The translations under genes were made by a program, and so were the position numbers. Below the pieces are notes generated by a model that saw nothing but the letters and a program-made list of their open reading frames with translations, was not told the DNA's origin and did no database searches. From NCBI GenBank assembly GCA_964577985.1, contig CAZOAR010000002.1:13130-77129 (forward strand): a DNA stretch of 64,000 bases. Direction: 5' to 3'. The stretch's first letter is position 1. Each line of letters starts with the position of its first letter. Below are positions 11,235 through 62,928 of the stretch, in pieces. Source of the DNA: an uncultured Gemmatimonadota bacterium (GTDB lineage Bacteria > Gemmatimonadota > CAZMKB01 > CAZNLH01).

Positions 11235-11248
11235 CCCTTTTCCTCGCA

Positions 11249-11272
11249 CTTGACAGGGTACTTTTTGTCAAG
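11249..11272 (+). terminator. Candidate terminator hairpin after the outer-membrane protein gene
   Basis: CTTGACA-(10 nt)-TGTCAAG inverted repeat, followed by T-rich CTCCTGTTTTCCC. Sits between convergent genes. Confidence 0.35.
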
Positions 11273-11286
11273 CTCCTGTTTTCCCT

Positions 11287-11943: not shown

Positions 11944-12237
11944 TACAACCTCCCTGTAAAAAAAGAGTTTGGCCTTCCAGATTATCTGAAGGGTATTATA
12001 ACGCAATACCGGGAACTCCGCGGAGCACGGCCGGCGGACTTCCCCGGTCATGATGAGAGAATACCGACTTTCCCGTTTTTCTTGAAGTATTATATCACCG
12101 ACCGTGTGGAATTGTCAAGTGGACAGGGTATTCAGGAAACTCCCGCTAACTGTCCGTGTTGACACGGAATCCTCTTCGTGATAGGATTGTAGCTGTAGTA
12201 TGCTTTCCAGCCACCGCGCTCATCAGGTAGTGGATAA

Positions 12238-28180: not shown

Positions 28181-28199
28181 CCCCGCGTGGAATTTACCA

Positions 28200-28227
28200 T
28201 TCACAATCTGACAAATTTGTATATATT
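28200..28227 (+). promoter_or_regulatory. Putative promoter for otsB-otsA
   Basis: TTCACA, 16-nt spacer, TATATT in an AT-rich island between the TreT-like gene and otsB. Confidence 0.35.
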
Positions 28228-28290
28228 TTAGGTTGACCGGAATGGAGGAACTCCTTCGCGAGCGGGGAACATATCCTCAGATACAACGGC

Positions 28291-34793: not shown

Positions 34794-35933
34794 TCAATTG
34801 ACATCGAGAACCTTCTTGTGGATCTCTATCGGTTCCGTTTCCAGTTCCTTTTCTTCCACCATTCTCAGGGGAATCGGGTAACAGAGGAGCGTAACTTCCA
34901 GCCGATCCAGGTTCTCCAGGAGCGGGACTTTAGAGATACCCGTTCGTTTCCCGCCCGGATCAATACGGTCGTCTTTGAGGATCGATCTAGCGTTCCAGAT
35001 GTCCACGGAATCGTCATCCGCCATCTCAAACTCCACTCCGAGCCTGAATCCCACATCCTCGAACAGTTCCCTGCCGTCTCCATCCAGACCGACGATACTT
35101 ACCACGAGTTCCCTCAGCGGAGATCCCCCCGGTAACTTATGGCCCGATCCATTGTTTGATATAGTAGTTCTCACATTGACCGAATCCGAGGATACCGTCA
35201 GCGTCGCCGAGAAGGTGCAGGCCTTCTGAAGCATCTCAGCCCTTTGTCCACCGGAGAACCGATGGCTCGAGACATCGCCCCTGACTTTCCCGTAGTTTGA
35301 AGCCCTGGCCGTCGACTCCGGCATGTGGCAGTCCCGGCAGCTTTTTCCCGCCGTTCTCGATCTGTTCTCTTTCCATGATTCATAATCAGAATAGATGAGA
35401 ACACCATACTCATTCCTCAGATGATGACACGTCGCACAGTAGTCCGCCGTTCCAAAGCCATCTTCTTCCTTGATCCCATGGTATATCGATTCTCCTCGGC
35501 CTGTACGGCCAACCTTGTCGTTTCCGGGACGGGATTGAAACTCGGTTATGCCTGAACGCTCACGCAACACTGATAGTGAGTGGCAGTAATCGCAATTAAC
35601 GCCTTCACGCGAGATTCCCTTCATGACCTTCGTGTCTCCACTGTTCCACGCGACCGGGGCGTGACACGAAAGACACTTCACATCTTCTTCCCTGGATTTG
35701 ACGGCGGCGTACAGGTCCTGAAAGAGGGAATCCTCCCACGATACCGCGTGAAAAGATCTCTCCCACTCGTGGTAGATGTTGCTGTGGCACGATTCGCACA
35801 CAAGAGAGGACTCGTAGCTCTTCTCTGTCGCGAACAGGTTGCCGGGCAGAGAGGGAGCCGTGAGAAGGACCGGCAGAAGGACCGGCAGCAATTCCCAGGT
35901 CCGGAATCGATGATACATCTCTATCGGGGACAA
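34794..35933 (-). CDS. Secreted multiheme c-type cytochrome (five CxxCH)
   Basis: Signal peptide. Heme motifs CESCH, CLSCH, CDYCH, CATCH, CRDCH. First-heme context CESCHSNIYHEWERSFHA parallels CRSCHAEIYEKWNATSHA in the C-terminus of the selenoprotein at 61597..62928. Confidence 0.8.
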   Translation of the reverse strand: MSPIEMYHRFRTWELLPVLLPVLLTAPSLPGNLFATEKSYESSLVCESCHSNIYHEWERSFHAVSWEDSLFQDLYAAVKSREEDVKCLSCHAPVAWNSGDTKVMKGISREGVNCDYCHSLSVLRERSGITEFQSRPGNDKVGRTGRGESIYHGIKEEDGFGTADYCATCHHLRNEYGVLIYSDYESWKENRSRTAGKSCRDCHMPESTARASNYGKVRGDVSSHRFSGGQRAEMLQKACTFSATLTVSSDSVNVRTTISNNGSGHKLPGGSPLRELVVSIVGLDGDGRELFEDVGFRLGVEFEMADDDSVDIWNARSILKDDRIDPGGKRTGISKVPLLENLDRLEVTLLCYPIPLRMVEEKELETEPIEIHKKVLDVN

Positions 35934-40484: not shown

Positions 40485-41828
40485 TCAACCGTTTATGATA
40501 TGAGGGGTAATGAAGATAAGGAGGTCACTTCGCTCTTCTTTCAAGCTCTTGTGACTGAAGAGCCTTCCCAGGAGCGGGATGTCTCCGAGAAGCCACAGCT
40601 TCGACACGGTCTCACCGCGATTCTCCTTCAGCAGGCCTCCTATGACGATCGTCTCGCCGTCCTTGACCCGTATACTGGTCTCGCTGCTCCTCTTGGTTGT
40701 GATCGGCACCTGGTACTCGACCGGGCCGGAATAACCCGAGATCTCCTCGATAGTCGGCTCGACCTGCATGGTTATGGTCTTACCCTCATTGACGCGCGGC
40801 GTGACCTTCAGAGTGATTCCGATGTCGATGTATTCAAAACTCGCGACGTCCTGCGATTCCGCCGCGAAGCTGAACCGGTTCACCGTCTGGATAGGGACAG
40901 ACGTCGTGACCGCTATTTCTGCCTCCTGGTTGTTCAATGTCGTTATCCTCGGATTCGATATCAGCTTGGAGTTCGTTTCCTGGCTGAGGATGTCGATAGC
41001 ACCCTGAAGATCCTTGCCTGACAGCATACCCCACTTGAAGATCGATCCTACCTGTTCTGACGTTCCACTGGTGCTGCTGCTGCCCGACTGGTATTTTTCC
41101 TCTATCGAGAGCTTCGAATAGAGCAGTTGAAGCGTGTTAGGCCACGCGATCCCGACCTGGTCATTCTTGTTGAACAGTGCCTCAACGATTCTGGCTTCTA
41201 TCATGACCTGAGGCTCAGGCACGTCTATTCGGGATATGATCTTTTCAACATCCCTGATCACGTGAGGCTGATCGTTCACGATGAGTACTTCCGACTGGAC
41301 GACCGCCTCTTCACCACCTCCCATGGTGCGTCTGAAGGTCTGAACCTTTCCACCCTCCGTCAGTATTCCCTCCACAGCCTTCTTTACATCCGCACCGTCC
41401 ACATACCGGAGATCGAAGACACCCACTTCTCTGGGCTTTGGAGGTACCTTGTTCTCTCCGGGCTTCACCAGAATGACATTTTCATCCCGGGAAAACGCAT
41501 AATCATTGGCCTTCAGGATGTTGCGAAGCGCCTCATCTACGGTTACCCCGTGGAGCCGCACCGTGACCTGGCCCGCCACGTCAGGTCCAGCCACAATGTT
41601 GAGGCCGTTCTGCTCCGCGAGAAGCCGCAGGACATTTCGGAGGTCCGCGTTCTTGAAGTCCATTGTGAGGAGATTCTCTCCCGCGTCACCGCTGGAGACC
41701 TTGAAGTAGTCACCCTCAGGCCAGCCCTCCAGCTCGGCCTCGAGGCAGCAGGGCGTCGCCAGGAGAATAGCCGCCAGTAATATGACCCATAACGCCTTTA
41801 TTGTCTTGTCGTTATTCAACATCATCAC
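40485..41828 (-). CDS. pilQ: Type IV pilus secretin
   Basis: Signal peptide. Secretin C-domain (…VIGGLLKENRGETVSKLWLLGDIPLLGRLFSHKS…LLIFITPHII). Confidence 0.8.
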   Translation of the reverse strand: MMMLNNDKTIKALWVILLAAILLATPCCLEAELEGWPEGDYFKVSSGDAGENLLTMDFKNADLRNVLRLLAEQNGLNIVAGPDVAGQVTVRLHGVTVDEALRNILKANDYAFSRDENVILVKPGENKVPPKPREVGVFDLRYVDGADVKKAVEGILTEGGKVQTFRRTMGGGEEAVVQSEVLIVNDQPHVIRDVEKIISRIDVPEPQVMIEARIVEALFNKNDQVGIAWPNTLQLLYSKLSIEEKYQSGSSSTSGTSEQVGSIFKWGMLSGKDLQGAIDILSQETNSKLISNPRITTLNNQEAEIAVTTSVPIQTVNRFSFAAESQDVASFEYIDIGITLKVTPRVNEGKTITMQVEPTIEEISGYSGPVEYQVPITTKRSSETSIRVKDGETIVIGGLLKENRGETVSKLWLLGDIPLLGRLFSHKSLKEERSDLLIFITPHIING

Positions 41829-42369
41829 CGCCTTCGAGGTTGAGGACTATCTTACCCCGGCCCCTCTTGAGAACAACAGAGTCCTGATGGATACTGACGA
41901 CCTCTGCGCCGTCGATGTCGTCTCCCCTTCTCAGGACCGAATCGTTGATCAGCACTACCGCATCGTCGTCTTTCCAGGATATCGCGGTGAGGAGTAGGTC
42001 TGGTTCCCGGGTTGTTTCAGATGTCCCGGGGGATTCTTTTCCTGAAATAAAGGGATCGCGTCCCCAGGTCGAATATACGGGGACTACTTCATCTTCTGTC
42101 CCCACGGAGTACGATGCCATACCAGACTGGACGACGGCAAGCTGTTCGCTCATTTCCCTGAATGCTGTGCCGCTTTCCTCTTCAACCCCCTCCGACGTCG
42201 ATGAGTCCGAATATCGCCGTTTACTCCCCATTGAGAAGAAGAGTATCAGACTGAATATCAGCATGCCACCATAGGCGAGCCACTTCTTCTCTTTCGCAGG
42301 GCCTCCCCCACCGGATCTGTCGGCAAGACGATCGGTGATGGGTGACAGAAACTTCCTTACAGCGTCCAT
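41812..42369 (-). CDS. PilP-like pilus assembly lipoprotein (tentative)
   Basis: N-terminal TM segment. C-terminal beta-domain (…ISWKDDDAVVLINDSVLRRGDDIDGAEVVSIHQDSVVLKRGRGKIVL) resembles PilP/GspC. Sits between pilO and pilQ. Confidence 0.45.
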   Translation of the reverse strand: MDAVRKFLSPITDRLADRSGGGGPAKEKKWLAYGGMLIFSLILFFSMGSKRRYSDSSTSEGVEEESGTAFREMSEQLAVVQSGMASYSVGTEDEVVPVYSTWGRDPFISGKESPGTSETTREPDLLLTAISWKDDDAVVLINDSVLRRGDDIDGAEVVSIHQDSVVLKRGRGKIVLNLEGGDDVE

Positions 42370-42380
42370 TCTTGACTACC

Positions 42381-42977
42381 TCACAACCTTTCGTCCGCGG
42401 CGCTGACTCCGCGCCTTATATAAACCATCATGGAGAAATTCGATTCCAGATCCTCCCGCCGGCCTGAGATACGGCTTATCTCCAGTTCGCCAAAGGAGGC
42501 GAAATATGGCAGATCCTCGAGTGACCGCAGGAATCTCCCGATCGGGACATAATGTCCTCTGGCAACCAGTTGAAACGGAAGGACCAGCACTTTACCGTCT
42601 CCGGCTGTGGCATCTCCGTTGTCGGACGAAAACAGATCGGCAAAGGGTACTCCCACATAGGTGACTACGCAGTCGTTGCTCTTTCCGGTCTTGATTATTT
42701 CCTCGGCCATCCCCCTGACCTGCTTTGCCCCCGGAAGCGTAGAGAAGAACCTGGTGCGCTCTTTCTCGAGGGAGACATATTCATCATGATACCGGGAGAG
42801 ATTCTTTGTATCATCCGTCCAGGAGGAAACAAGCGACTCCATCTCAGCGATGTCCTGGCCAATTCCCTTGAGCTCTTTGCTCTGTTTGACAAAGATGAAG
42901 CTGTACCACAGGAAGATGATTGCCGCCATAGCACAGACACCCAGAAGCAACCTCTTATTTTCTGCAATTCGTCCCAC
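42381..42977 (-). CDS. pilO: PilO-like type IV pilus assembly protein
   Basis: Single N-terminal TM segment, coiled coil, then a periplasmic domain. Operon position matches PilO. Confidence 0.6.
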   Translation of the reverse strand: MGRIAENKRLLLGVCAMAAIIFLWYSFIFVKQSKELKGIGQDIAEMESLVSSWTDDTKNLSRYHDEYVSLEKERTRFFSTLPGAKQVRGMAEEIIKTGKSNDCVVTYVGVPFADLFSSDNGDATAGDGKVLVLPFQLVARGHYVPIGRFLRSLEDLPYFASFGELEISRISGRREDLESNFSMMVYIRRGVSAADERL

Positions 42978-42996
42978 TGGATCTTTGACCTCTCTA

Positions 42997-44814
42997 CTAA
43001 AGAAGCATCTTGTTTTCTTCGAACGGCCTTATGACAACGCACTTTATCGAGAATTCCACTGCTTCACCGCCGGAGCCTTCTATCTCATCCATGCCAATGA
43101 GCTCAGGATCACGGAAGAACGGCGAATTCTCAAGATCAAGCATCATCGCGGACAGGATTGGCTCAGAGAGAGCCCGGGGAGACAATAAAGTGCCCTCCAT
43201 TCCCAGCTCCCATCTCTTCTCTTCCTTCACCACAACCGTCTCTTCTCCCTCGCCTTCGTACTCCTCTGAGTCCTGTGGCGTCTGCTTGTCCTCGTCCTTT
43301 CCGGCTCCCCCTCTCCTTACCAGAAACAGGTCCTCAAGCACGACCCCCTCCGGTATCCTGTGGCTGATATCCATCAGAAGATCAGGGGTGAGATCATGGT
43401 TGAGGATGACCTTCTTGATAAGATTGTCCATGCCTTTCATACGCTCCTGGATGTTTCGTATGTCCTGAAAAGAAGGATCAGAGCGGATCTTTTCCCAGGA
43501 CATCTCCATCCCCTTCAGTTTCGTGGTGTCAACGCGTTTTCTGACCTCCATGTTTACAGACGCCCCTGCGAGCAGGAGAGCCATGATTCCCGCGGCCGTA
43601 CTGAGCAGCTTCTTCTCCATCACCGTTCTCTTGATGTCCTGGACGCCGGTGGTGATCAGGTTTATTCCGTCACCCTTCTCCAGTGCCAGTCCCACCGCTA
43701 CAGACCATGATAGTCCGAGCTTTCTCAGTCCCTTCAGGGCCTCCTCTTCCAGGGGGAGTTGTTTCGCTTCGAGTTCCCTGCTCAGATCGAGCGTCTCGAC
43801 CGGCTGACCGAGACTGGAACTCAGGTACTCCCGCAGATTCAGAAGCGCTGCAGACCCTCCGGTCAGCCACAGCTTCCCTACGTTGTCGATGCCGTAGTTC
43901 CGGGCGGCGTATTTGATGGATCTGTCGATTTCATTCGCGAGACGCTCCGCTGCTGGTCTGACCAATGCCTGAATACTGGAGAATGGAATGCCATCTTCCG
44001 TGTATTCGGGGGTCTCGCCCAGAGGTATACCATATTTGCACTTGATCTCCTCGGCCCTTTCGAGGTCGATCGAGAATTCTTCCCCTTTGTAGGTGACCTT
44101 ACCCATCAACGACTCCGTCATCGCCTTCCCGGCCGTCATGATATCCCTGGAGAACTCGAGTGTGTCCCGGGAAAAGAAGGATATGCTGGTAATCCTTTCA
44201 CCAATGTCGATTACCACGTTTACGTCCTCTTCTCCATGCTTCAGGTTGCCGAGTACGTTACTGATAGCGAGGGGCGCGACCGTCACTACAGACGGTGGAA
44301 GGCCTATTTTTCGCGTACTGGAAAGAAGTCTGTTGATCCACTCTCGCCGGGCGACGACCACCAGTATCTCCAGTTCACCGCTCTTCTTCTTGTCAAGAAC
44401 CTTGAAATCATATGCCGCGTCCTCTATGGAGTATGGCAGGAATCTGTCCACGACCCATGGAATTGCAGCCTTGAGTTCGCCCCTCGGCATGGGAGGGACT
44501 TCGACGCGCCTGACCATGACCGAGGACCCCTGCACCGAGATAATGACGTTGTTGATCTCCTCTTTTCGACCCTTGAGCGATTCCTTTATAAGAGGCATGA
44601 CATCTTCTATCCACTCATCATCCTTCTTCTCCACAGCGGGGCGCTTTGCTGAGATGCCAGTAATCGTTTCGATCGTCCTGCCCTTCCGCCTGAACAGAAC
44701 CATCTTGACCGATTGGGCTCCGATGTCGATCCCGAGCGTGACTTTCTTCTTCATCTTGAGGGGATCGCTGATGAATTCTCTCAGAGCGTTCTTCTTTCGA
44801 CTCTTCGCTATCAT
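42997..44814 (-). CDS. PilM (actin-like ATPase) fused to PilN
   Basis: N-terminal …VTLGIDIGAQSVKMVLF… actin-fold PilM domain. A later TM segment plus coiled coil resembles PilN. Start chosen at the Met whose ATG overlaps the upstream stop (ATGA); the ORF track extends to 44907. Confidence 0.7.
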   Translation of the reverse strand: MIAKSRKKNALREFISDPLKMKKKVTLGIDIGAQSVKMVLFRRKGRTIETITGISAKRPAVEKKDDEWIEDVMPLIKESLKGRKEEINNVIISVQGSSVMVRRVEVPPMPRGELKAAIPWVVDRFLPYSIEDAAYDFKVLDKKKSGELEILVVVARREWINRLLSSTRKIGLPPSVVTVAPLAISNVLGNLKHGEEDVNVVIDIGERITSISFFSRDTLEFSRDIMTAGKAMTESLMGKVTYKGEEFSIDLERAEEIKCKYGIPLGETPEYTEDGIPFSSIQALVRPAAERLANEIDRSIKYAARNYGIDNVGKLWLTGGSAALLNLREYLSSSLGQPVETLDLSRELEAKQLPLEEEALKGLRKLGLSWSVAVGLALEKGDGINLITTGVQDIKRTVMEKKLLSTAAGIMALLLAGASVNMEVRKRVDTTKLKGMEMSWEKIRSDPSFQDIRNIQERMKGMDNLIKKVILNHDLTPDLLMDISHRIPEGVVLEDLFLVRRGGAGKDEDKQTPQDSEEYEGEGEETVVVKEEKRWELGMEGTLLSPRALSEPILSAMMLDLENSPFFRDPELIGMDEIEGSGGEAVEFSIKCVVIRPFEENKMLL

Positions 44815-45734
44815 TGCATATTCCAGTTTCTGGCGACCATTCTCACAGTCTCCGGGCTCACAATATCCACATTCCTCTCTTTCATCGAGATGAGCGAGTG
44901 GCAACACATGGAGTTCGCTTTCAAAGGATTACCTCTGCTGAAGCACCATATCTCGTTGACAGCCATATCATCGAAAAGCATCTCGACGTTCCCGCAGCCC
45001 GCCTTCCTCAGCCTGTGAAAGATATATTCCTTCAGATCATCGGGGTCGAGCGGGTTGATCGTGTAGACAAGGTCCACCCTGATATCGCGAGAGCCGCTCC
45101 CGGTGATCTTGTCGAGAAGACCCGTCCTGCCCAGCATTACCACGTTCATGAGACCCGCCCCGTCGAACTGACACCTCAGAAGTTCCCCGAGGACCTGAAT
45201 GTTTCCGGTAGACAACCTCTCTCCGTCGTCGATCACGAGAACCAGGGTTTTCCCCTCTTCTATGACACTTCTGAACGCATAATCATGTATAGCTTGTCTA
45301 CACTCGAGTCTTGTCCGGTATTTCGCGCCAATGTCCAGTGCTCGACAAATCTGCTGAAGGAACTTGAATTCTGATCCGGAGTCCGGTCTCGGCAGCAGCT
45401 TTACGATGGAATTCTTCCTTCGGGCCTGCAGGCGATCGATCAGGACCCTGGCGAGAGCTGTCTTTCCCACCCCCGATTCGCCGAGAATGACATCAATTCC
45501 ACCCCGCATATGAAGAGACAGTTCGATTCTCCTGATGCACCAGGCATAATCCCGGGTCGGGAAAAAGAATTCCGGGTCCGGCTCGGCGGCGAACGGATCT
45601 TTCTTCAATCGAAGAGATTCGTAGTATTTCACTTGCATCACCTCCAACCAATTCCAGGATGTCAATCCTGCCCCATTCGGAATACATGCCTCCCGTATCG
45701 AACCGGGCAACCGAAATCGGGCCGACATCTTCAA
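44811..45734 (-). CDS. ExeA/GspA-like AAA ATPase
   Basis: Walker A ILGESGVGKTALARVL and Walker B VLVIDDGERL, as in secretion-associated ExeA proteins. Confidence 0.7.
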   Translation of the reverse strand: MKMSARFRLPGSIREACIPNGAGLTSWNWLEVMQVKYYESLRLKKDPFAAEPDPEFFFPTRDYAWCIRRIELSLHMRGGIDVILGESGVGKTALARVLIDRLQARRKNSIVKLLPRPDSGSEFKFLQQICRALDIGAKYRTRLECRQAIHDYAFRSVIEEGKTLVLVIDDGERLSTGNIQVLGELLRCQFDGAGLMNVVMLGRTGLLDKITGSGSRDIRVDLVYTINPLDPDDLKEYIFHRLRKAGCGNVEMLFDDMAVNEIWCFSRGNPLKANSMCCHSLISMKERNVDIVSPETVRMVARNWNMQ

Positions 45735-46895
45735 CTACACGGTGAATGATACCGTCGACCCGTCACTGAATGTAATCGTAAATGATGTACCCCTCATATC
45801 CACGTTGCTCGCCCCCCCACTCTGGGCGTCCTTGAATTTCTTGTACTCGATCTTCACATTGCTGCCGTCGCTTATTACAACCGCCGAGAATGTTTTTGTT
45901 TCTCCACTGCCGCCCCTCGGATTGTTGCTGTCGAAGACCTTAGTACCGCCGATCTTTATTTCTTCATACCAGGCACTGGTCGCGTAGACTGCCTTGATGG
46001 ACGTGATCGATATGTCGCTGCCGCTGTTGTTCTGAACAACAAACTCGACGTCTCGGTGGCCGTTCCCCTTAGCCTTGGCGGACCCCCCCAGCAGGGTAAG
46101 GCCGCCCGATCCCCCTGCCTGACTCCAGAGATCACCAGGCAACCTGATGTTGGACACGGCGTCTGACCCGGGCAGAAGAGATATATAGAGGACAGAAGTG
46201 TCCGACGTAGTGGAGTAGGTCGCCTGGAGTTGATGGTTTCCTATGGGTATCTGGTTGTTGAACGCGAAGGTGCCGGAAGCGTTCGGAGAGGTGGTCCGGG
46301 TGGTCATGCTTCCCGAACCATCAGGAAACGTTATCCTGAGCGTTACATTGGCGGCGTCAGTTCCCGGAGGGTTCCCCACACCGTCCAGTACTACTCCTTC
46401 CACGGTATTGCTCTTCAGGTCACTCATACTGCTGGCTATCGTCCTCGTGATAGCGCTTCCGCCGCCACTGCTGCTGATTGTCAGACCTCCGTTGTAGGTA
46501 TACTGATTCCCCCATTCATCGGTCTTGAAACCGTTCGCATTCTGGGTAAAATCGATCGCCATGTAAGGGCCATCCCAGGTGCCATAACCCGGATTGGTCA
46601 CGAGCTCGTCAAGGTTGGATGGCAGGCCACCCACGTCACCGAAATAACCAAAATCCGTCCGGACTCCACCAGAGTACAACTCGGGGTTTCCCACGATAGC
46701 CTGGACGAGTTGATCCATTTCCGCAATGGTACCCTCGAACCTGCTCCGGTCGAGTGTGTCCTGTATCGCTGTCATGGCGACCGTGCTCAGTATCCCGATA
46801 ATTACAATCACCATCAGCATTTCGAGGAACGTAAAACCGCGTCCGGCGGCATCCATCCCCGCCCTTTTGTCAGCATGCAAGAGTGATAATCTCAT
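45735..46895 (-). CDS. Large type IV pilin-like protein (prepilin N-terminal methylation motif)
   Basis: Leader …AGRG|FTFLEMLMVIVIIGILS matches the class III signal G|FTxxE plus a hydrophobic helix. Long Gly/Ser/Thr-rich C-terminal beta region. Start Met uncertain (46895 or 46856). Confidence 0.65.
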   Translation of the reverse strand: MRLSLLHADKRAGMDAAGRGFTFLEMLMVIVIIGILSTVAMTAIQDTLDRSRFEGTIAEMDQLVQAIVGNPELYSGGVRTDFGYFGDVGGLPSNLDELVTNPGYGTWDGPYMAIDFTQNANGFKTDEWGNQYTYNGGLTISSSGGGSAITRTIASSMSDLKSNTVEGVVLDGVGNPPGTDAANVTLRITFPDGSGSMTTRTTSPNASGTFAFNNQIPIGNHQLQATYSTTSDTSVLYISLLPGSDAVSNIRLPGDLWSQAGGSGGLTLLGGSAKAKGNGHRDVEFVVQNNSGSDISITSIKAVYATSAWYEEIKIGGTKVFDSNNPRGGSGETKTFSAVVISDGSNVKIEYKKFKDAQSGGASNVDMRGTSFTITFSDGSTVSFTV

Positions 46896-47092
46896 GTCTT
46901 TGACCGCCTCACCAATTAACAATGCTTCGCGTTATGAGCAATTGCCTGCTCGTTGTCCATAGCAATCGCGTATTCATGGTCATTCCCGCTTGTCGGGAAT
47001 CTCCCTGGAAAAGGATGCCCGCAGGACGATGCGAGAGACTTCCGTCGTCTTTCAGCGTATGCGCTGCAATCGCCGACGTCATGCCCGATCTC

Positions 47093-47548
47093 CTAAAATG
47101 AGAGGACTATGTTCTCCGAGGATCCGATACTTGTAATGGTCCTCGTGCTGGAACTGTATACATAGGCGACCCCCCAGGCATCCGTGAGAAATTCACTGTC
47201 AGCGGGATCTATGTAGGGCCCGTTCCAGCCGCTCCTTGTGAACCTGTTGTATGATGCTACACCTGCCGGCTTTATCGCAAGATCAAGCAGGCTGGTGGGC
47301 AGCGCCCCGACATCCCCCTCGTAGCCAACGTCGATAAGTCCGCCTCCGGCCGCGAGGCTGGGATTACCAACAATCGCTTTCTTTATCTCTCTCATCTCCT
47401 CGAGCGTGGCCGATTTGCTGGAAGATTCCAGCATCAGACCCACTCCCGGTATCGCCGCAGCCATGACGAGTGCGACGATCGCGAGCACTATGGTCAACTC
47501 AACCAGCGTGTACCCGGATGTTCCGCCTTTTCTTTCTCTCCACTCCAT
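47093..47548 (-). CDS. Type IV pilin (major pilin candidate)
   Basis: 151 aa. MEWRERKGGTSG|YTLVELTIVLAIVAL prepilin leader and N-terminal methylation motif. Confidence 0.75.
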   Translation of the reverse strand: MEWRERKGGTSGYTLVELTIVLAIVALVMAAAIPGVGLMLESSSKSATLEEMREIKKAIVGNPSLAAGGGLIDVGYEGDVGALPTSLLDLAIKPAGVASYNRFTRSGWNGPYIDPADSEFLTDAWGVAYVYSSSTRTITSIGSSENIVLSF

Positions 47549-47629
47549 CGTGTCATCTCCATTGTGTCGCGCGTTCCATCTTCGTCATATTTGCCCGGGC
47601 GCCCGGTCGTCGGGTAGCACAATGATTCA

Positions 47630-48907
47630 TCAACGCTGTGCTATACCCACCATGTTCCACAGCGGCATGAAGACGCCCAGAGCAAGAAGGAGCATCATTC
47701 CGCCAAGCCCCACGAGCAGGATAGGCTCGATCGCGGCGGTCAACCTCTTGAGGTGGTAATCGATCTCCATCTCGTAGTGATGCGCTGCCTCATTAAGCAT
47801 TTCTTCCATAGCCCCGGTCTCCTCACCGATCGATACCATCTGCACGAGGAGGGGGGGGAACGTCCCTTCCTGGTTCATAGGCACTGAAAGGCCGGTCCCA
47901 CCCATGACCCGCTCTCTGACTCCCTCTATCCAACCTGCTATTATCTTATTGCCCACTGCCTCCCCGACGACGTCGAGCGCCTCCAGTATTGGCACACCGC
48001 TGCCGGTGAGGATCGCCAGAATCTTAGCGAACCGGGACATTATCCCCTTCAATGTTATCCTTCCCACTGCGGGCAACTTCAGTTTGAGCATGTCCCGCGT
48101 CCTCATCCCACCGTCCGTCCGCAGCAGAAGACGTATCCCGACAGTGATGCCTGCTACGAGTATGAGGTTTATGTACCAGTAGTTATGAAAAAAGTGGCTG
48201 ACCCCCATCAGAATTCTCGTGGGAAGCGGCAGTTCCATGTCGAATCTCGCAAAGATGGTCATGAATTTCGGCAGAACATATGTGACCAGCACAAAAAAGG
48301 CGAGAGACATGACTATGATCACCATGACCGGGTATCTCATCGCCGATTTGATCTCTTCCTTCACCTTCTGCTCATACTCGAGGAGCCCGGAGAGTTTGTC
48401 GAGTACTTCATCCAGCCGTCCAGCGGTCTCTCCGGCCTTTATCGTGTTACGATACACAGGAGTGAACACGTCAGGCTGTTTCTTCATCGCCTCATACAGG
48501 GACGTTCCTTCCTGTATGTCTTTCAGCAGTAGTGAAATGACTTCCCGCATCTCCTTCTTCTCGTTCTGGTCGCGGAGAGACTGGAGGCCTCTTACAAGGG
48601 GGACGCCCGTCCTGACGAGCGTCTGAAACTGCTTGGTGAACAGGATCATATCATCGGGCTTTACCTTCTTCTCGAACAAGAAGTGGAATCCGGGGCCCGA
48701 ATTGCTGCTCTTCCTGATACGAACGGGGACATATCCTATCTGCCCGATCTCCCGTGCGGCTTCCTGGACACTTTCGCCCTCTATCTCACCCTTGACCAAT
48801 CCTCCTCTCTCGTTTCTCGCCTGGTAAGCAAAGCGCGTCATCTCATGCACCCCCACGTCATCGTCCAGCGACCATTGAAGACAACGGACCTCGAATGCCA
48901 ATGACAA
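47630..48907 (-). CDS. pilC: Type IV pilus platform protein (GspF/PilC family)
   Basis: 425 aa. Duplicated GspF-domain architecture with 3 TM helices. Confidence 0.85.
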   Translation of the reverse strand: MSLAFEVRCLQWSLDDDVGVHEMTRFAYQARNERGGLVKGEIEGESVQEAAREIGQIGYVPVRIRKSSNSGPGFHFLFEKKVKPDDMILFTKQFQTLVRTGVPLVRGLQSLRDQNEKKEMREVISLLLKDIQEGTSLYEAMKKQPDVFTPVYRNTIKAGETAGRLDEVLDKLSGLLEYEQKVKEEIKSAMRYPVMVIIVMSLAFFVLVTYVLPKFMTIFARFDMELPLPTRILMGVSHFFHNYWYINLILVAGITVGIRLLLRTDGGMRTRDMLKLKLPAVGRITLKGIMSRFAKILAILTGSGVPILEALDVVGEAVGNKIIAGWIEGVRERVMGGTGLSVPMNQEGTFPPLLVQMVSIGEETGAMEEMLNEAAHHYEMEIDYHLKRLTAAIEPILLVGLGGMMLLLALGVFMPLWNMVGIAQR

Positions 48908-48925
48908 CGCGGAGTGGTCGCACTA

Positions 48926-50641
48926 TTATTCATCGATTGTAACACCCAGGACCTCTTCAATCGTCGTTTCTCCCGACAGGACCTTCTTGAGACCGCTCTC
49001 CCTCAGCGAAGACATACCGTGAGATGCCGCAACCTCTTTAATTCTCGTGCTGTGCTGTTGCGTGAGTATGCAATTTCGGACTTCTTCGTTGATCACAAGA
49101 ATCTCTATGACAGCCTTTCTTCCCCGGAATCCAGTCATTCGGCACTTGTCGCATCCTCTGGCCTGAAAAAAGGTGGCCCCTTCCGGCACTTCCTCCCTGA
49201 AGACGCTCTTCAGCAGTTCGGGAGCGGGTTCGAACGGCTGCTTGCAGCTTTCGCACAACACACGGATGAGTCTCTGCGCGATTACTCCAGATACCGTCGA
49301 GGCAAGGAGAAATGGTTCCACTCCCATTTCGATGAACCTCGTGAGCGCGCTGGAGGCATCGTTCGTGTGAAAGGTGGCAAGAACAAGATGACCCGTCATA
49401 GCGGCGTGAATAGCAACATCTGTAGTCTCCCTGTCCCTTATCTCTCCAACCATTATCACGTCGGGATCCTGCCTGAGAATTGCCCGCAGGCCATTAGCAA
49501 AATTCATTCCCGCCTTCGGATTGACCTGAGACTGCCTGATCAACTCCAGCTGGTATTCGACAGGGTCCTCGATCGTGATGATGTTTTTGGAAACCGTATT
49601 TATCTCATTGAGCATCGCGTAGAGCGTGGTCGTCTTCCCGCTCCCCGTTGGTCCGGTTACGAGGATGAAGCCATATGGGTCCGCCAGCATCTCCTTCACT
49701 CTTTCCAGATCGTTCTCCTCGAGTCCCAGGTTCCTTATCCCCAGTGAGACAGCCCTCTTGTTCAACAACCGGAGCACAAGGTTCTCTCCGTGGATCGTGG
49801 GGAAGGTCGAGACCCTTACCCCGATATCTTCGGTAGGCAGATTGAGCTCGAAACGACCATCCTGGGGCACCCTGCTCTTGGCTATGTCGAGCTTCGCCAT
49901 TACCTTGATTCGCGAGATGACGGGCAGTTGCAGACCCGTCGGCAGAACAGACACCTCCGACATCTTGCCGTCCACTCTGAACCGGGTCCGCGTGAACTTC
50001 GCCTCGGGCTCGATGTGAATATCGCTGGCCTTTTCCTTGACCGCCTGAAGGATCAACTCATTTACAAACCGTACTATCGGCCCCTCCTGGATCAACCCTT
50101 CCAGGTTCTTGACGTTGTACTCCTCCTCGCCATCCTGTCCCGTCGACGACTCGGAGACCTCACTTATCGCATCGTCCAGCGTGGCGCTCGAACCGTAATA
50201 ATTTCTTATCGCTTTATCCATGGCGGACATCGAGCTGAGTGCGGGTTCTACTTCGAGACCGGTTTCTCTTCGGATCTCATCCTGCGCCACTATATCACTC
50301 GGGTCAACCATGGCAACATTGAGCGTATTGCCGAGTTTGAACAACGGTATCACTTTGTAGGTCTCTGCAAGCCATTTGGAAATCAGCGAGACCGTCTGGG
50401 GCTCTATCACGTAGTGTTCGAGGTCAATTGTAGGTATACCGAGCTGCTCGCTCAGTATGCCTGTAAGGTCCTCCTCACGGATGAATTCAAGATCGACCAG
50501 AACCTCGCCCAGTTTCCGGGTCGAACCTCCCTGGACCTCCAGTGCTTCCTGCAGTTGCGCCTCAGTGATGAGTCCTCCCGAGAGGAGGATGTCCCCGAGT
50601 TTATCCTGCTTTTTGCTGCTCACCATTCCCTCCCGAGCCAC
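48926..50641 (-). CDS. pilB: Type IV pilus assembly ATPase (GspE/PilB family)
   Basis: N-terminal T2SE_N domain. Walker A GPTGSGKTTTLYA. Asp/His boxes. Tetracysteine CESC…CDKC. Confidence 0.9.
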   Translation of the reverse strand: MAREGMVSSKKQDKLGDILLSGGLITEAQLQEALEVQGGSTRKLGEVLVDLEFIREEDLTGILSEQLGIPTIDLEHYVIEPQTVSLISKWLAETYKVIPLFKLGNTLNVAMVDPSDIVAQDEIRRETGLEVEPALSSMSAMDKAIRNYYGSSATLDDAISEVSESSTGQDGEEEYNVKNLEGLIQEGPIVRFVNELILQAVKEKASDIHIEPEAKFTRTRFRVDGKMSEVSVLPTGLQLPVISRIKVMAKLDIAKSRVPQDGRFELNLPTEDIGVRVSTFPTIHGENLVLRLLNKRAVSLGIRNLGLEENDLERVKEMLADPYGFILVTGPTGSGKTTTLYAMLNEINTVSKNIITIEDPVEYQLELIRQSQVNPKAGMNFANGLRAILRQDPDVIMVGEIRDRETTDVAIHAAMTGHLVLATFHTNDASSALTRFIEMGVEPFLLASTVSGVIAQRLIRVLCESCKQPFEPAPELLKSVFREEVPEGATFFQARGCDKCRMTGFRGRKAVIEILVINEEVRNCILTQQHSTRIKEVAASHGMSSLRESGLKKVLSGETTIEEVLGVTIDE

Positions 50642-53393: not shown

Positions 53394-54425
53394 CTACAGG
53401 ACGTCCGGATCGTGATCCGGTGGCCGTGTCGGATCTTCCGGAGGAAGGCCATTTGCATCCTCCGCTGGGACAGCCTTGAAGAGTTTCGGCTGTTCAGACA
53501 GCAATTCGATCCCGTCAGGAAGCTCTATCATCGGGGAGTAGTAGGTCTCCCCAACTGGAGGGTCGTTGATTTCTATATATACATCAATTTCGTTCTTGTT
53601 GAGCACCTGGATAAGGGAAATAGGTCCGATGACTGCAAGTTCTATGTTGCCAGGCTGAACAGAGAACTCGTCCCGGAGCCTGCCCCTGATGGTAATAGGA
53701 ATCTCCCCGAGCTCAATTTCGACAAATTTCTCAACCTTCCCGGATAGCGTGACCTTTTTCACGCTGGGCGCTACCGTCCTCATGCCGGAAAGATCGAGCG
53801 GCAGCGAGATGTCAAATGAATCCTTCACGCCATCTACCACACCTTCCACAGTCATTATCGAGTCAACGTTACTGAGCTCCCCTCGCGCGCCACTCAACAA
53901 GACGGTGGGCGGGTCTATGGAGACACCGCCGGCAAGCACATATCCTTCATCGGGCACGATCCTCAGGCGAGACACGATCGTCAACTCCCTCTCTATAAGC
54001 CTGTCCAGGGCCAGATGAAGTTCGGCCGGGGACTTGACCCCGAGCGGGATGAGGTTGATGTCCGAGGGCATGGATAGAGATGAGACATCGAGACTCAGGT
54101 CTCTCACCCCCACATCACTCCCTTCTACCTCTTTGACGAAAAACGGCTTTTTCCACCAGAGCTTCAACAGCTCTTTGCCTGTCCCCGCGAATATTATGCT
54201 CACCTCGGATGGAGGCTCGTTCACAATCACAAGTGTCGTGTCGGAGACCACTATCTCGAGAGGGACCGGGTAGTCAAGCTGGTGAGCCTGGTCAGTCACC
54301 GCGTGAAACCAGAGAAAAAGACCGAGTACGAGGGCTATGACCTTCAGAAGGATATTTTTCGAAAACCATCCTCTTAAAGATGCCAAAAGGTGTGGATCAG
54401 ATCCTGGTCTCACTCTCCCGGGCAT
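53394..54425 (-). CDS. YbbR-like domain protein (CdaR family)
   Basis: N-terminal TM segment …LKVIALVLGLFLWFHAV… followed by repeated YbbR-like beta domains. No CdaA is adjacent. Confidence 0.7.
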   Translation of the reverse strand: MPGRVRPGSDPHLLASLRGWFSKNILLKVIALVLGLFLWFHAVTDQAHQLDYPVPLEIVVSDTTLVIVNEPPSEVSIIFAGTGKELLKLWWKKPFFVKEVEGSDVGVRDLSLDVSSLSMPSDINLIPLGVKSPAELHLALDRLIERELTIVSRLRIVPDEGYVLAGGVSIDPPTVLLSGARGELSNVDSIMTVEGVVDGVKDSFDISLPLDLSGMRTVAPSVKKVTLSGKVEKFVEIELGEIPITIRGRLRDEFSVQPGNIELAVIGPISLIQVLNKNEIDVYIEINDPPVGETYYSPMIELPDGIELLSEQPKLFKAVPAEDANGLPPEDPTRPPDHDPDVL

Positions 54426-54488: not shown

Positions 54489-54857
54489 TTATGTTTTATC
54501 TTTATGCCGTTCCCGACTGCCATGTGTTTCGTGATAATAAGCGCCCTGCTCCTTAGTGTCAAGCTTTAATGAGGAGTGTCCCTGGAGGGATTTCCTGAGG
54601 CGGTTTTCATCTACTCTATATTTAAACGCCTTGCGGCCACAGACGAAGATAACCGGTATCTCTTCGCCATAGAGCCTGGTGAGCTCATCATCTTTCGAGA
54701 TGTCTATTTCACGATAAACGAACGGGATCTCCTGCTTCACCCTCATTATCACGTCCTTCGCCTTTCGGCAGAGAGAGCATCCCGACCGCGTATAGAGTGA
54801 AACGGTCAGGTTACTCGATTCTGATATATTTGCACCTTCCATCCTATTCAGCATCAT
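54489..54857 (-). CDS. Glutaredoxin-like protein (thioredoxin fold, CxxC = CSLC)
   Basis: …VSLYTRSGCSLCRKAKDV…IPVIFVCGR… resembles NrdH/glutaredoxin. Start Met uncertain (several Mets between 54842 and 54899). Sits immediately downstream of selenoprotein candidate A. Confidence 0.6.
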   Translation of the reverse strand: MMLNRMEGANISESSNLTVSLYTRSGCSLCRKAKDVIMRVKQEIPFVYREIDISKDDELTRLYGEEIPVIFVCGRKAFKYRVDENRLRKSLQGHSSLKLDTKEQGAYYHETHGSRERHKDKT

Positions 54858-55806
54858 AGATTCTCCGGAGCTGCGCCTTCCTCCTCGTCCTGTACTCATC
54901 CAGAAAAGGCAGCATCCCTGACTGGTCTTCGATGTCGGACCCGAGGGGAATCAATTCCGCGCTTTTCTGTTCAACGGGGCTATCGCCGAGCCCGAGATCC
55001 AGCCGCCCGAGAGAACGTCCGTGAGTCTCACCCTTCAGGACCACTGTTCCACCAACCAATATGGGATCGTAGATCCTTGTGCCACCGTGCCCCAGTATTA
55101 CCACGTCGAGGTTCTGGTACTTCTCTGCCAGTTTCCTGCCCTCATCGAAACCGACGTGGAACAAACCCACGAGGAGATCGACTTTATCCTTCAATTCTAT
55201 CGTGAGTTTCTCGACACGTTCATCCGGATCCGCCATAACCCATCCAGGGGCCATCATACCATCGCCGGTCGGCAGCGTGACACCTATCAACCCGATCTTC
55301 AACCCGCCCCTGTCGACAATCAGAGATGGTATGCCGACTTCCTCGCCCTCGAACTCGAGATTACACGAAAGAAGCGGTAGACGTCCAGAAAGACTCTCAA
55401 TGAATTGATTCCCCATGGCTAGATCTCGCTCGCCGGGGACAACGGCGTCATACTTCATCGCCGCCATAGCCTTTGCCAGTATATCCGATTTGAGCTCACC
55501 CAGCGGGTCCGGCGCCAGCGAGAAGTCGCCCACATTCACGAGCAGCACAGCCTGGCCCTCTTGTCTTATCTTATCGATCATCGTCGCCCGCCGGGCGATT
55601 CCACCCTGAAGGGGCTTCTTTCACCCGCACGGCTCCAGGTATCCCAGCTCGTCCGAACTGTACAGGATCGTCACCAGAGAAGATTCCTCGGCGGGAGAGG
55701 AGACCGGGAAAAGCAGCGCCGCCACACATGAAAGAAGGAGAAACAGTCCGGCCCCCGGAGATGAAATAACTCGGCCAATACGGGTCCCTGACAAGGAACT
55801 CATCAT
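54844..55806 (-). CDS. Candidate selenoprotein A: secreted degenerate metallophosphoesterase-like protein with in-frame TGA (Sec) at 55621..55623, motif …YLEPCG-U-KKP…
   Basis: ORF-track entries 55621..55806 and 54844..55581 are in the same frame (55623-55581=42) and separated only by TGA plus 13 sense codons (KKPLQGGIARRAT). Signal peptide. ILYSSDELG replaces the DxH motif-I, NVGDFS is motif II, GERDL replaces GNHE, and GHGG is retained. The ATG overlaps the TGA of the DtxR-like gene. Confidence 0.6.
55584..55598 (-). promoter_or_regulatory. Putative SECIS-like hairpin about 25 nt downstream of the UGA of selenoprotein A
   Basis: mRNA UCGCCCGGCGGGCGA (5-6 bp GC stem). The same nucleotide sequence occurs at the equivalent position in paralog B. 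Confidence 0.35.
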
Positions 55807-60966: not shown

Positions 60967-61506
60967 TCAGAGCAATTCCTCGATCTTCTCCTCCATAAAC
61001 GCACGCCCCCTGAAGCCTTCGAGCATTTCCCTTACTCTTCCCTCCCTATCAAAGATAAATGTCGTGGGAACTCCCCCTATTCCGCCGAAGAGGTGAGCCG
61101 TCTCCACGCTGCCGATCAGGAGAGGGATCTTGACCTTGTGCCTCTCGATAAAAGAATTGAGATACTTACCCTCCCCCTTGTCGAGAGAGATGGCTACGAC
61201 TTCCAGGCCCTCTTTCTTATGTTCCGACTCGAGCCTGTCGAGCCCCTTCAGTTCGGCTACACTCGCCTCCGCGGATGGCATCCAGAAGAGAATGACAACG
61301 ACTTTTCCCCACAACTCGGATGAGCTGTGGATTCCGGCGCGATGGTCCTTCAGGGAGAACCGCGGAAGATATGCCTCATCAGGCAACCCGTAGGGTTTTT
61401 TCCCTGGATAGAACAGAACGATGGCCGTGACAATCGCGATCAATACCAGCGCGGAGAAGATCAAGATCTTTCGCCGGCTCTTTTCGGACCTTTTCACACA
61501 CATCAC
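60967..61506 (-). CDS. TlpA/ResA-like thioredoxin-fold protein lacking the CxxC active site
   Basis: N-terminal TM anchor. Thioredoxin fold (…GKVVVILFWMPSAEASVAELKGL…VVAISLD…IPTTFIFDREGRV…) in which the canonical WCxPC is replaced by WMPSAEAS. Confidence 0.65.
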   Translation of the reverse strand: MMCVKRSEKSRRKILIFSALVLIAIVTAIVLFYPGKKPYGLPDEAYLPRFSLKDHRAGIHSSSELWGKVVVILFWMPSAEASVAELKGLDRLESEHKKEGLEVVAISLDKGEGKYLNSFIERHKVKIPLLIGSVETAHLFGGIGGVPTTFIFDREGRVREMLEGFRGRAFMEEKIEELL

Positions 61507-61596: not shown

Positions 61597-62928
61597 TCAG
61601 TGAACGAGATCCTTCATCGCCTCGTAGTCGAAGCCCTCTCCCCTCTCACCCGTGTGACAGGTGATGCATACAAAGACATTGCCCGCCTGTAGAGGCGCGT
61701 TTCCTTTGTCGGCAATATGCCTTGACGCCGGACCATGGCACTGTTCGCACTGGACGTTATTGAAGTTGGGAGTCTCGTCTATTGTCACAAAACCGCCTTT
61801 CTGATAACCGGTCGTGTGACACTTCACGCATTCCGGGTTGTACTCCTCGCCTTCCTTCTTGAGCGTAAGAAAAGCACGGGCGTGGCTCGTAGCATTCCAC
61901 TTCTCGTATATCTCAGCATGACAGGAACGGCACCACGCGGCGCCCATGTAGCCCGCCTTAGAACCCTTCAATTGCCCCCTTCGAGCATCCACATCGCTTT
62001 TTACCATATCCTTGACTCTCGACTGGTAGTCGGAGTAGAGTTCCGCCATCTCTGTGTCATCAGCGACCTTCGCGTCGAGAGGCACGAGTTCTCCGGAGAA
62101 TTCTACGATTTCCTTCGCCTTACGGTCAAAGGTAAGATCTATCCTGCCAAGATACTTACCCTTATCACCGGACTGGGCCATTATGGCTCCACCAACCGAT
62201 ACCGGTGTCTTCACCCTTCGACCCTGATGCCCCACGACAACGACATCTATCCCCTCCTGGCTTTCCGCCAGCGCAACCGACTGCCGATATCCCAGATGGC
62301 TCATCACCACAACAAGGTCGACCTTCTTACGCAATCTCGGAATGGCCTCCGCGAGGGCCTCGAACGGATCCTGGACCGTCCATTCCTCCTGCCCGACCCT
62401 GAGTTGATCAAGGGTGACCCCCACTATGCCGATTTTGATTCCTCCCCGCTTGATTATGAGATCTTTCCTGCCAAACTGCTTCCCGTTGTACTTCATATTC
62501 GTGTCGACGATGGGGATATCGCTCTTCTTCATCGTCTCCATGACAAACTCATCACCAAGCGCCAGTTCTCTCTCACCAAGCACAAGCGCGTCGTAATGCA
62601 TCTTCTTCATCGCCTCGAGGGACACGCTGCTCTTGACCCTTCCCTGATCGGTTGGCTTGCCGGCAAAATCTCCCAGACCCAGTATCAAGATCTCTCTATC
62701 CTCGTCTTCCGCCTCTCGTATCTTCGTCGCCCGCCGGGCGACCCCTCCCATAGGGTGCTTCTTTCAGCCACACGGTTCGAGATACCCGTATTCATCGCCT
62801 GTGTAGAGGATCGTAAGATTAACCAGGTCGCCACCCCTGGATGATGCGGGCAGAAGAGGAATGGACAGGAAGAGCGGCACGATGGAGGTCAGCGCCGCCG
62901 CGATAAGACACTTGTTTCGAAAAGACAT
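61597..62928 (-). CDS. Candidate selenoprotein B: secreted metallophosphoesterase-like domain with in-frame TGA (Sec) at 62764..62766 (…YLEPCG-U-KKH…) fused to a C-terminal tetraheme cytochrome c
   Basis: ORF-track entries 62764..63009 and 61597..62751 share a frame (62763-62751=12) and are separated by TGA plus four sense codons (KKHP). Signal peptide from the internal Met (MSFRNKCLIAAALTSIVPLFLSIPLLPASS). Motifs ILYTGDEYG / GLGDFAG / GERELALG / VVGHQG. C-terminal CRSCH, CVKCH, CEQCH, CITCH. Confidence 0.6.
62726..62742 (-). promoter_or_regulatory. Putative SECIS-like hairpin about 25 nt downstream of the UGA of selenoprotein B
   Basis: mRNA GUCGCCCGGCGGGCGAC (7-bp stem, 3-nt loop). Core GCCCGGCGGGCGAC is identical to the paralog A site. 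Confidence 0.35.

Follow-up and report, generated by a model that had tools for sequence, protein, structure and literature searches.

A UshA-like gene with a very probable selenocysteine codon and a tetraheme cytochrome domain in an uncultured Gemmatimonadota bacterium

In a 64-kb stretch of DNA from an uncultured Gemmatimonadota bacterium (64,000 nucleotides of contig CAZOAR010000002.1; hereafter the window), one minus-strand gene, referred to here as gene B, combines a phosphoesterase-like N-terminal half with a multiheme C-terminal half and carries an in-frame TGA codon near its 5' end. The locus raises the question of whether this TGA ends a short peptide or is read through as selenocysteine (Sec) and, in the latter case, what kind of protein is made. 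A reading of the letters alone, made without database searches (the sequence-only reading), had taken gene B as a candidate selenoprotein, i.e., a Sec-dependent periplasmic redox enzyme wired to c-type hemes. Overall, we consider it likely that gene B encodes a selenoprotein of the NCBIfam family NF041198 with a heme-wired Cys-x-Sec redox centre; the selenoprotein call is the firmer part of this reading and the mechanism the more tentative one.

Reading frame and parts of gene B

Minus-strand translation of positions 61597-62928 showed only one internal stop, the TGA at 62764..62766 that the sequence-only reading had located, in the context ...ILYTGDEYGYLEPCG-TGA-KKHPMGGVARRAT.... The frame opens with an ATG at 62928, with GGAG 9-12 nt 5' of it, and closes with the stop codon at 61597..61599. 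The gene and its parts are as follows.

61597..62928, minus strand: gene B, UshA-like (seleno)protein, 443 residues plus stop, complete
62839..62928, minus strand: signal-peptide-like segment, approx. residues 1-30 (MSFRNK, a hydrophobic run, PASSRGG), judged by eye
62764..62778, minus strand: E51-P52-C53-G54-U55 motif, with the Sec codon TGA at 62764..62766
62726..62742, minus strand: putative bacterial selenocysteine insertion sequence (SECIS) hairpin, GUCGCCC-GGC-GGGCGAC
61999..62826, minus strand: 5'-nucleotidase/UshA-type metallophosphoesterase-fold domain, approx. residues 35-310, catalytically degenerate
61600..61956, minus strand: cytochrome c554-type tetraheme domain, residues 325-443
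61918..61932, 61816..61830, 61735..61749 and 61654..61668, minus strand: CxxCH sites C333RSCH, C367VKCH, C394EQCH and C421ITCH

The phosphoesterase-type motifs claimed for the gene (GLGDFAG, residues 84-90; GERELALG, 118-125; VVGHQG, 231-236) and the four CxxCH sites were all found, and the tetraheme c-type cytochrome that had been placed at the C-terminus was confirmed by a match of residues 325-443 to PF13435 (63.6 bits). The N-terminus, which by eye resembles a Sec-type (secretory) signal peptide, makes a periplasmic location of the product plausible. A scan for promoters and terminators around gene B gave matches at chance level only.

Evidence that the TGA codon is decoded as selenocysteine

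We compared the codons at the Sec column among 65 related environmental loci (designated L with a number), which were gathered by a metagenome scan and contig look-ups and matched by regular expression. This column held TGA in 55 loci and a Cys codon (TGC or TGT) in 10, and neither TAA nor TAG occurred there among the family loci examined; the only other stop at the column came from one regular-expression match outside the UshA-like family. An ortholog-column check of this kind had been proposed in the sequence-only reading, together with the argument that a TGA at the same column in two paralogs speaks against a random nonsense mutation. The column proved to be TGA or Cys in every family member examined, and the argument holds across these loci.

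The second paralog is located in the same window, approx. 7 kb from gene B as had been claimed, and its TGA is indeed in the same alignment column.

54844..55806, minus strand: paralog A, short form of 320 aa, with EPCG-U (TGA at 55621..55623), a near-identical hairpin and no cytochrome domain

Paralog A was found by a six-frame scan for in-frame TGA codons adjacent to a Cys codon with long open frames on either side, and was the sole other case in the window with the motif of gene B. Its TGA lies in the context ...YLEPCG*KKPLQGGIARRAT.... The two proteins show 39% identity over 294 residues (E = 2e-68), and paralog A stops where the heme domain of gene B starts.

A 61%-identical ortholog (L003) reads YLEPCG*KSKPIGGIARRAT, and an independent assembly in ENA (L002) contains an identical gene B with the identical TGA. 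For each of the 13 closest database proteins (P0001-P0013, 60-95% identity) the gene call begins 3' of the TGA; full-length homologs that are more distant carry EPCGC, with C53-G54-C55 invariant among them. In a PDB sequence search, the residues on the two sides of the TGA aligned as one unbroken domain with solved 5'-nucleotidases. A post-TGA fragment of gene B would begin at M60 and would have four c-type heme sites and no signal peptide; as c-type hemes require export, a start after the TGA is unlikely. TGA is also the terminator of 25 of the 41 well-supported genes in the window, where it is the commonest ordinary stop, which indicates that UGA is not reassigned and that the code is standard. 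A search of GTDB representative-genome contigs with gene B returned one distant (30%) locus only. Judged from these alignments and codon comparisons, the TGA of gene B is very probably decoded as Sec in a protein of family NF041198.

A putative SECIS hairpin downstream of the TGA

A hairpin that begins 22 nt past the UGA is present in the minimum-free-energy fold of gene B, and both paralogs in the window share the form (G/A)UCGCCC-GGC-GGGCGAC at this distance. The paralogs match at 42 of the first 60 bases past the UGA and at 26 of the following 60. Among 46 distinct Sec-form sequences, the 7-bp helix was paired in 81.4% of 322 cells, as compared to 31-48% in a control in which the 3' partner was slid by 1-3 columns from the true hairpin register. 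Pair 27-39 covaries (GC 21, CG 11, GU 3, UG 3); both of its bases are third-codon positions (Leu/Val/Ile and Ala, respectively), so that the covariation in the hairpin falls on two wobble positions. The Ala codon in the stem was GCC in 37 of 38 Sec forms as compared to 1 of 7 Cys forms (P = 5.9e-6; Fisher test). The hairpin 3' of the UGA thus bears marks of a bacterial SECIS element, and we regard it as a putative one.

A second hairpin design, CUUGGC-GGUCUG-GCCAGG, located approx. 12 nt past the UGA, was observed in about ten other Sec-form loci (L015, L040, L041, L064, L067, L074, L077, L078, L081 and L085). Its GGUC-containing loop resembles the SECIS loop of E. coli fdhF. As a subset of the Sec forms uses this different hairpin, the UshA-like family appears to have at least two SECIS designs.

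Family identity and earlier records

For scoring against hidden Markov models, Cys was placed at the Sec column. Gene B scored 297.9 bits (E = 1.3e-88; cutoff 275) against NF041198 ("UshA_like_PCGU, UshA-like (seleno)protein"), an equivalog model of 519 positions; this model includes the heme domain, as a pentaheme protein encoded elsewhere in the window matches model positions 400-480. In addition to a score above the cutoff, gene B has the P-C-G-U motif and a UshA-type N-domain joined to a multiheme C-domain; the c554-type heme domain and the alternation of Sec and Cys are likewise those of the family, and there is no material difference, the only particulars being the uncultured lineage and public gene calls that are cut at the UGA. 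Gene B is very probably a genuine Sec-containing member of this catalogued family. Paralog A scored 141.5 bits against the same model, below the cutoff of 275. A related model, NF049981 (UshA-like (seleno)protein family 2), also describes a UshA-like fold with Sec near motif I; however, its motif is CxxU, and it spans 262 positions and has no heme domain. Against its cutoff of 140, gene B scored 89.5 and paralog A 62.6. Paralog A falls under both UshA-like cutoffs mainly because its heme domain is absent.

The view of gene B as a candidate selenoprotein was therefore right as to the selenoprotein and not as to its novelty, since the architecture is already that of NF041198. This UshA-like, COG0737-type family with a CxU motif is present in the 2008 selenoproteome table of the GOS (Global Ocean Sampling) data by Zhang and Gladyshev, with 76 Sec sequences (PMC2398784), and was listed again in surveys of 2022 (PMC9312934) and 2026 (PMC13188914); none of the three gives the family a function. 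A profile search of the UshA-like PCGU family yielded 21,427 representative clusters at E <= 1e-10, some of which may match one domain only, and 5,941 clusters (50% identity) at E <= 1e-30. NF041198 is thus a large and widespread family with a Cys-x-Sec site and four hemes on a phosphoesterase-derived scaffold. What is known of the family is not extended by evidence from the window, and the remaining interest is at the family level. As for annotation, the appropriate call for gene B is a single selenoprotein with read-through of the TGA (NF041198), in place of a truncated "cytochrome c554 family" open reading frame (ORF).

The N-domain is a partly degenerate phosphoesterase fold

Residues 31-305 of gene B match 5'-nucleotidases in the PDB (best match 2z1a, E = 2.5e-19; also CD73 and UshA), and the PF00149 score was 21.8, as compared to a threshold of 21.5. 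When an AlphaFold2 model of the Cys homolog P0020 (predicted local distance difference test, 90.2; predicted template-modelling score, 0.88) was used in Foldseek, N-domains of 5'-nucleotidases ranked first, with approx. 310 aligned columns. UshA, CD73 and the T. thermophilus 5'-nucleotidase (PDB 1ush, 4h2i and 2z1a) share with gene B the N-terminal metallophosphoesterase fold as well as the ...LEP... and GGxARRA segments around the Sec position. Gene B differs from these enzymes by its Cys-Gly-Sec insertion-site motif and by a tetraheme cytochrome instead of the nucleotide-binding domain. This C-terminal nucleotide-binding domain is absent in gene B, where the PDB alignments end at approx. residue 305 and the NF007109 score is 50.2 (cutoff 600); in terms of sequence, the heme domain has apparently replaced it.

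The positions of the UshA ligands in gene B were mapped by a HMMER alignment to 2z1a, with the residue numbers of UshA:

UshA D41: gene B D45, kept
UshA H43: gene B Y47, lost (metal site 1)
UshA D84: gene B D87, kept
UshA N116: gene B E119, changed
UshA H117 (catalytic): gene B R120, lost
UshA D120 (catalytic): gene B A123, lost
UshA H217: gene B H211, kept
UshA H252: gene B H234, kept
UshA Q254: gene B G236, lost

Replacement of H117, D120 and H43 has removed both the catalytic dyad and metal site 1, and gene B has neither the full set of dimetal ligands nor the catalytic His-Asp dyad of a functional 5'-nucleotidase. The sequence-only reading had called the phosphoesterase motifs degenerate; this is correct for the catalytic residues, although the degeneration is only partial, with D87, E119, H211 and H234 kept in gene B and in about half of the family.

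Conservation was assessed among 62 non-identical full-length members of the UshA-like PCGU family. Invariant in all 62 are C53, G54, C/U55, G61, G62 and G86, and P52 is present in 58. N-domain positions with more than 80% conservation are G48, E51, P52, C53, G54, U/C55, G61, G62, R65, R66, A67, N144 and D228, along with further glycines and hydrophobic positions; position 84 is Gly in gene B and Asp in 53 of the 62 members. None of the residues conserved at this level is a classical phosphoesterase ligand, and the positions of those ligands vary across the family. C53 and C/U55 are the only ligand-capable side chains (H, M, K, Y or C) in the N-domain that are conserved in more than 80% of members.

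Another member of the superfamily is the thiosulfohydrolase SoxB (TIGR04486; PDB 2wdc), which is periplasmic, as the product of gene B would be, and which acts on sulfur compounds carried on a cysteine. Unlike gene B, SoxB has no hemes and no Sec, and its di-manganese ligand set is not conserved in gene B; the score of gene B against TIGR04486 (90.9 bits; cutoff 550) shows that it is not SoxB.

The heme domain and its relatives

The heme domain of gene B matches cytochrome c554 (1bvb, E = 1.4e-7) and OcwA (6i5b, E = 2.6e-13) in the PDB. Exactly four CxxCH sites were present in 60 of the 62 family members; these four sites, H349 and H404 are conserved in 60 of 60, and H443 in 50 of 62. Beyond these three histidines, the heme domain has no conserved non-motif His and no conserved Met or Lys. 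With three conserved non-motif histidines for four hemes, one heme is without a conserved His as sixth ligand. Cytochrome c554 of Nitrosomonas europaea (PDB 1bvb/1ft5; PF13435) resembles gene B in this regard, having four CxxCH sites and only three distal histidines, and in the contexts of hemes 1-3 (CVKCHTTGYQKGGF and NVQCEQCHGP). Heme II of the N. europaea protein (CVGCH) is five-coordinate, and its motif aligns with CVKCH of gene B. Cytochrome c554 is a free electron carrier of ammonia oxidation, whereas the version in gene B is a fused domain; gene B scored 32.4 against NF043010 (cutoff 400).

A further point of comparison is MccSep/ExtKL of Geobacter sulfurreducens, which, like the product of gene B as proposed here, is a periplasmic multiheme c-type cytochrome with one Sec and an essential Cys. 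In MccSep (PDB 9wt8), heme 2 is ligated by Cys239, Sec325 is nearby, and the enzyme reduces polysulfide and selenite (PMC13510729); it is a precedent for a Sec that acts beside a heme on S-S and Se substrates. The catalytic part of MccSep, with five hemes, an Ig-like domain and a DGUP motif, is not homologous to gene B, and gene B, which scored 25.3 against NF040886 (cutoff 250), is not a member of MccSep/ExtKL. Since MccSep was shown in 2026 to be the polysulfide reductase of sulfur respiration, the UshA-like PCGU family stands out as an obvious one to consider next for redox reactions of sulfur or selenium in the periplasm.

Genes adjacent to gene B and its relatives

The gene next to gene B encodes a thioredoxin-fold protein and is probably co-transcribed with it.

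60967..61506, minus strand: TlpA/ResA/Redoxin-fold gene, 90 nt 3' of gene B

In place of CxxC, this protein has S-A-E-A-S (FW-MPSAEAS-VAEL), and its sole Cys is at residue 3. It appears as a redox-dead thioredoxin fold, and the Cys-less SAEAS form is also found in the TlpA-like ortholog of L003. A TlpA-like gene is likewise present 3' of the orthologs in two 61-64% identical relatives, L003 (11904..12512) and L086 (9155..9688), and in L003 a CcdA (DsbD_TM) gene (11230..11949) lies between the selenoprotein gene and the TlpA-like gene. The window also contains a DsbD_2-family gene, far from gene B (25175..25891, plus strand).

Among Cys forms, DsbA-like genes are adjacent downstream in L068, L073, L080 and L089 and upstream in L087. 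These DsbA-like genes have a CxxC (FYCHSCY or FYCGHCY) and adjoin a clade of short Cys forms of the CGCSPKTDFGG type. Across 60 loci, for which a crude ORF caller was used and where many clusters represented antisense shadow ORFs on GC-rich contigs, no universally conserved neighbour was found; thioredoxin-fold neighbours recur in some clades only, and the neighbourhood is variable elsewhere (e.g., L088). The link to periplasmic thiol-disulfide proteins is thus recurrent and not universal; it fits a Cys-x-Sec redox site without proving one. The wider synteny (ADH, Fur, FeoB, DtxR-like and glutaredoxin-like genes) is common to relatives at the lineage level and has little bearing on function.

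Proposed mechanism and alternative explanations

As a tentative general mechanism, we propose that gene B encodes a heme-wired Cys-x-Sec redox centre, a reading that we hold to be possible and not yet probable. The product would be exported to the periplasm. Its fold would no longer serve as a phosphoesterase, the positions of UshA His117, Asp120 and site-1 His43 being taken by Arg120, Ala123 and Tyr47. The invariant Glu-Pro-Cys-Gly-Sec loop may represent a new active site in which Cys53 and Sec55 would cycle between a selenenylsulfide and the thiol/selenol pair, and the four hemes would connect this site by electron transfer with the cytochrome pool of the periplasm. Likely substrates would contain S-S or S-Se bonds and may be inorganic (polysulfide, selenite) or may be the recurrent thioredoxin-fold neighbour proteins. 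Of the Sec-dependent, heme-wired periplasmic redox enzyme that the sequence-only reading had envisaged, the Sec codon and the tetraheme domain stand and the periplasmic location is plausible, while the redox role is one that we infer.

Several observations weigh against this overall reading. Among the 48 ORFs scanned in the 64-kb window, selA, selB and selD were not found; tRNA-Sec was not found either, and ARAGORN gave no tRNA at all in the window. A search of the whole window gave no Rfam match at the gathering threshold, and the single-sequence fold z-score of the post-UGA region was only -1.5. The hairpin overlaps the conserved GG(L/V/I)ARRA peptide, and part of its conservation is therefore at the protein level. 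The residues D87, E119, H211 and H234, which resemble metal site 2 of UshA, are kept in gene B, in paralog A and in approx. 31 of 62 family members; this site may have retained a metal, and the chemistry may be metal-based. Since the thioredoxin fold of the TlpA-like neighbour lacks cysteines, this protein is no classical dithiol partner, most family loci are without a thioredoxin-fold neighbour, and CcdA and ResA-type neighbours could simply serve cytochrome c maturation. The searchable literature gave catalogue entries only; as no experiment on the UshA-like PCGU family was found in it, the function given here is inferred.

Two alternatives concern the codon itself. If the TGA was a true stop, whether by nonsense mutation, in a pseudogene or through an error of sequencing, the locus would give rise to a small secreted peptide, to a separate cytochrome of 384 residues that begins at M60, or to both. 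Automatic gene callers do annotate the 384-aa ORF (61597..62751) alone, and the missing Sec machinery in the window would agree with a stop; however, a column that holds TGA in 55 loci from many environments, Cys in 10 and never TAA or TAG, an identical TGA in an independent assembly, a structured and covarying hairpin 3' of the TGA, one continuous conserved domain aligned to solved 5'-nucleotidases on both flanks, and a downstream fragment without a signal peptide where export is required make this explanation very improbable. Even less credible is that UGA is reassigned throughout the genome, either to Gly (as in genetic code 25) or to Trp (as in code 4). The lineage is a poorly known candidate one (the nearest named GlnA relatives are from Candidatus Glassbacteria, 71%, and KSB1, 67%), but TGA ends 25 of the 41 well-supported genes, the homologs have Cys and not Gly or Trp at the Sec column, and housekeeping genes in the window showed no in-frame TGA where Gly or Trp would be expected.

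The other two alternatives accept the Sec and concern the chemistry. Cys53 or Sec55 could be the axial ligand of heme 2 (C367VKCH) while the other residue attacks the substrate, which would give a His/Cys-heme plus Sec centre similar to that of the MccSep polysulfide reductase, or of TsdA and SoxAX. This arrangement, suggested by analogy, seems unlikely to us, although several observations point to it. For the four hemes, the conserved histidines outside the CxxCH motifs number only three, H349 and H404 (60 of 60) and H443 (50 of 62); the heme domain has neither a conserved Met nor a conserved Lys, and the other conserved ligand-capable residues are C53 and C/U55, with Tyr42, Tyr112, Tyr438 and Lys441 at only 61-76%. 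The c554 heme II that aligns with CVKCH is five-coordinate, and the Cys239-ligated heme 2 of MccSep with Sec325 nearby provides a precedent (PMC13510729). Conversely, homology between gene B and MccSep is limited to generic heme modules (NF040886, 25.3 versus 250), and c554 shows that such a heme can stay five-coordinate and non-catalytic. If the Cys-Gly-Sec loop of the remodelled fold did dock onto the heme that has no conserved distal His, the result would be a His/Cys(Sec)-ligated heme beside a chalcogen nucleophile. The family would then have evolved a catalytic centre of heme plus selenocysteine for a second time, independently of and convergent with the MccSep centre described in 2026, and its substrates in the periplasm of numerous uncultured anaerobes would be polysulfide, selenite or protein disulfides. 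Somewhat less likely still is a metallo-(seleno)enzyme in which a metal in the D87/E119/H211/H234 pocket works with Cys53 and Sec55, either hydrolytically, as in SoxB, or in a redox reaction. In favour of such an enzyme, approx. 31 of 62 members, with gene B and paralog A among them, have the complete D-E-H-H quartet; 48 of 62 have E119, an acidic residue occupies position 121 throughout, and SoxB (TIGR04486, 90.9 bits) and 5'-nucleotidase are the nearest characterised relatives. However, the other half of the family is without the quartet and still has Cys-Gly-Sec/Cys and four hemes, and this pocket therefore cannot provide a family-wide mechanism; the loss of the site-1 His and of the catalytic His/Asp dyad and a TIGR04486 score far under 550 also argue against it.

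Further observations on paralog A

Paralog A has a signal peptide and a D-D-E-H-H ligand pattern, and is absent from the syntenic position in the relatives L003 and L086. In L055 (35..949; 843..2357), a 304-aa heme-less short form of the Cys type, with no obvious signal peptide, is located directly upstream of a full-length Cys member to which it is closely similar; short-plus-long pairs recur in the family. A glutaredoxin-like ORF of approx. 117 aa with CSLC (approx. 54489..54842, minus strand; translation read by eye) begins 2 nt past the stop of paralog A. We discounted this neighbour as functional evidence, since L003 and L086, which are without paralog A, have a homologous glutaredoxin-like gene at the corresponding syntenic position.

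The pentaheme cytochrome and other genes in the window

A free-standing multiheme cytochrome is encoded 26 kb from gene B.

34794..35933, minus strand: pentaheme cytochrome, five CxxCH sites, c554-type first module (PF13435)

The sequence-only reading had suggested this protein as a dedicated electron partner of gene B, based on a matching context of the first heme. This was not borne out: the similarity of the first-heme contexts is due to the shared c554-type module (PF13435), and we rejected the pairing, as there is no linkage and the flanking genes (a cyclase, an LPG-synthase-like membrane protein, a GHMP kinase and glutamine synthetase) are unrelated. Like many other proteins, the pentaheme cytochrome could carry electrons in the periplasm. 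It is distantly related to MccSep/ExtKL (NF040886, 69.1; cutoff 250), with PDB matches to 9wt8/9wt9 (E ~6e-8) and to cytochrome c552 (5ze8; E = 1.6e-17). At the column of MccSep Sec325 it has Ser (GGSP as compared to DGUP), and, with the alignment read by eye, it has no Cys at the column of the heme-ligating Cys239.

Other gene groups in the window include a type IV pilus/type II secretion-like cluster (40485..50641, minus strand; secretin, PilM/N, AAA, T2SSF and T2SSE) and a trehalose cluster (26939..30650, plus strand; TreT-like protein, trehalose-phosphatase and GT20 synthase), which is preceded by a DUF5752 gene. Three ORFs were without a Pfam match, i.e., 10011..11234 (plus strand, 407 aa), 45735..46922 (minus strand, 395 aa) and 53394..54425 (minus strand, 343 aa). 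The 343-aa ORF is also without an NCBIfam match and is conserved 3' of the glutaredoxin-like gene in L003.

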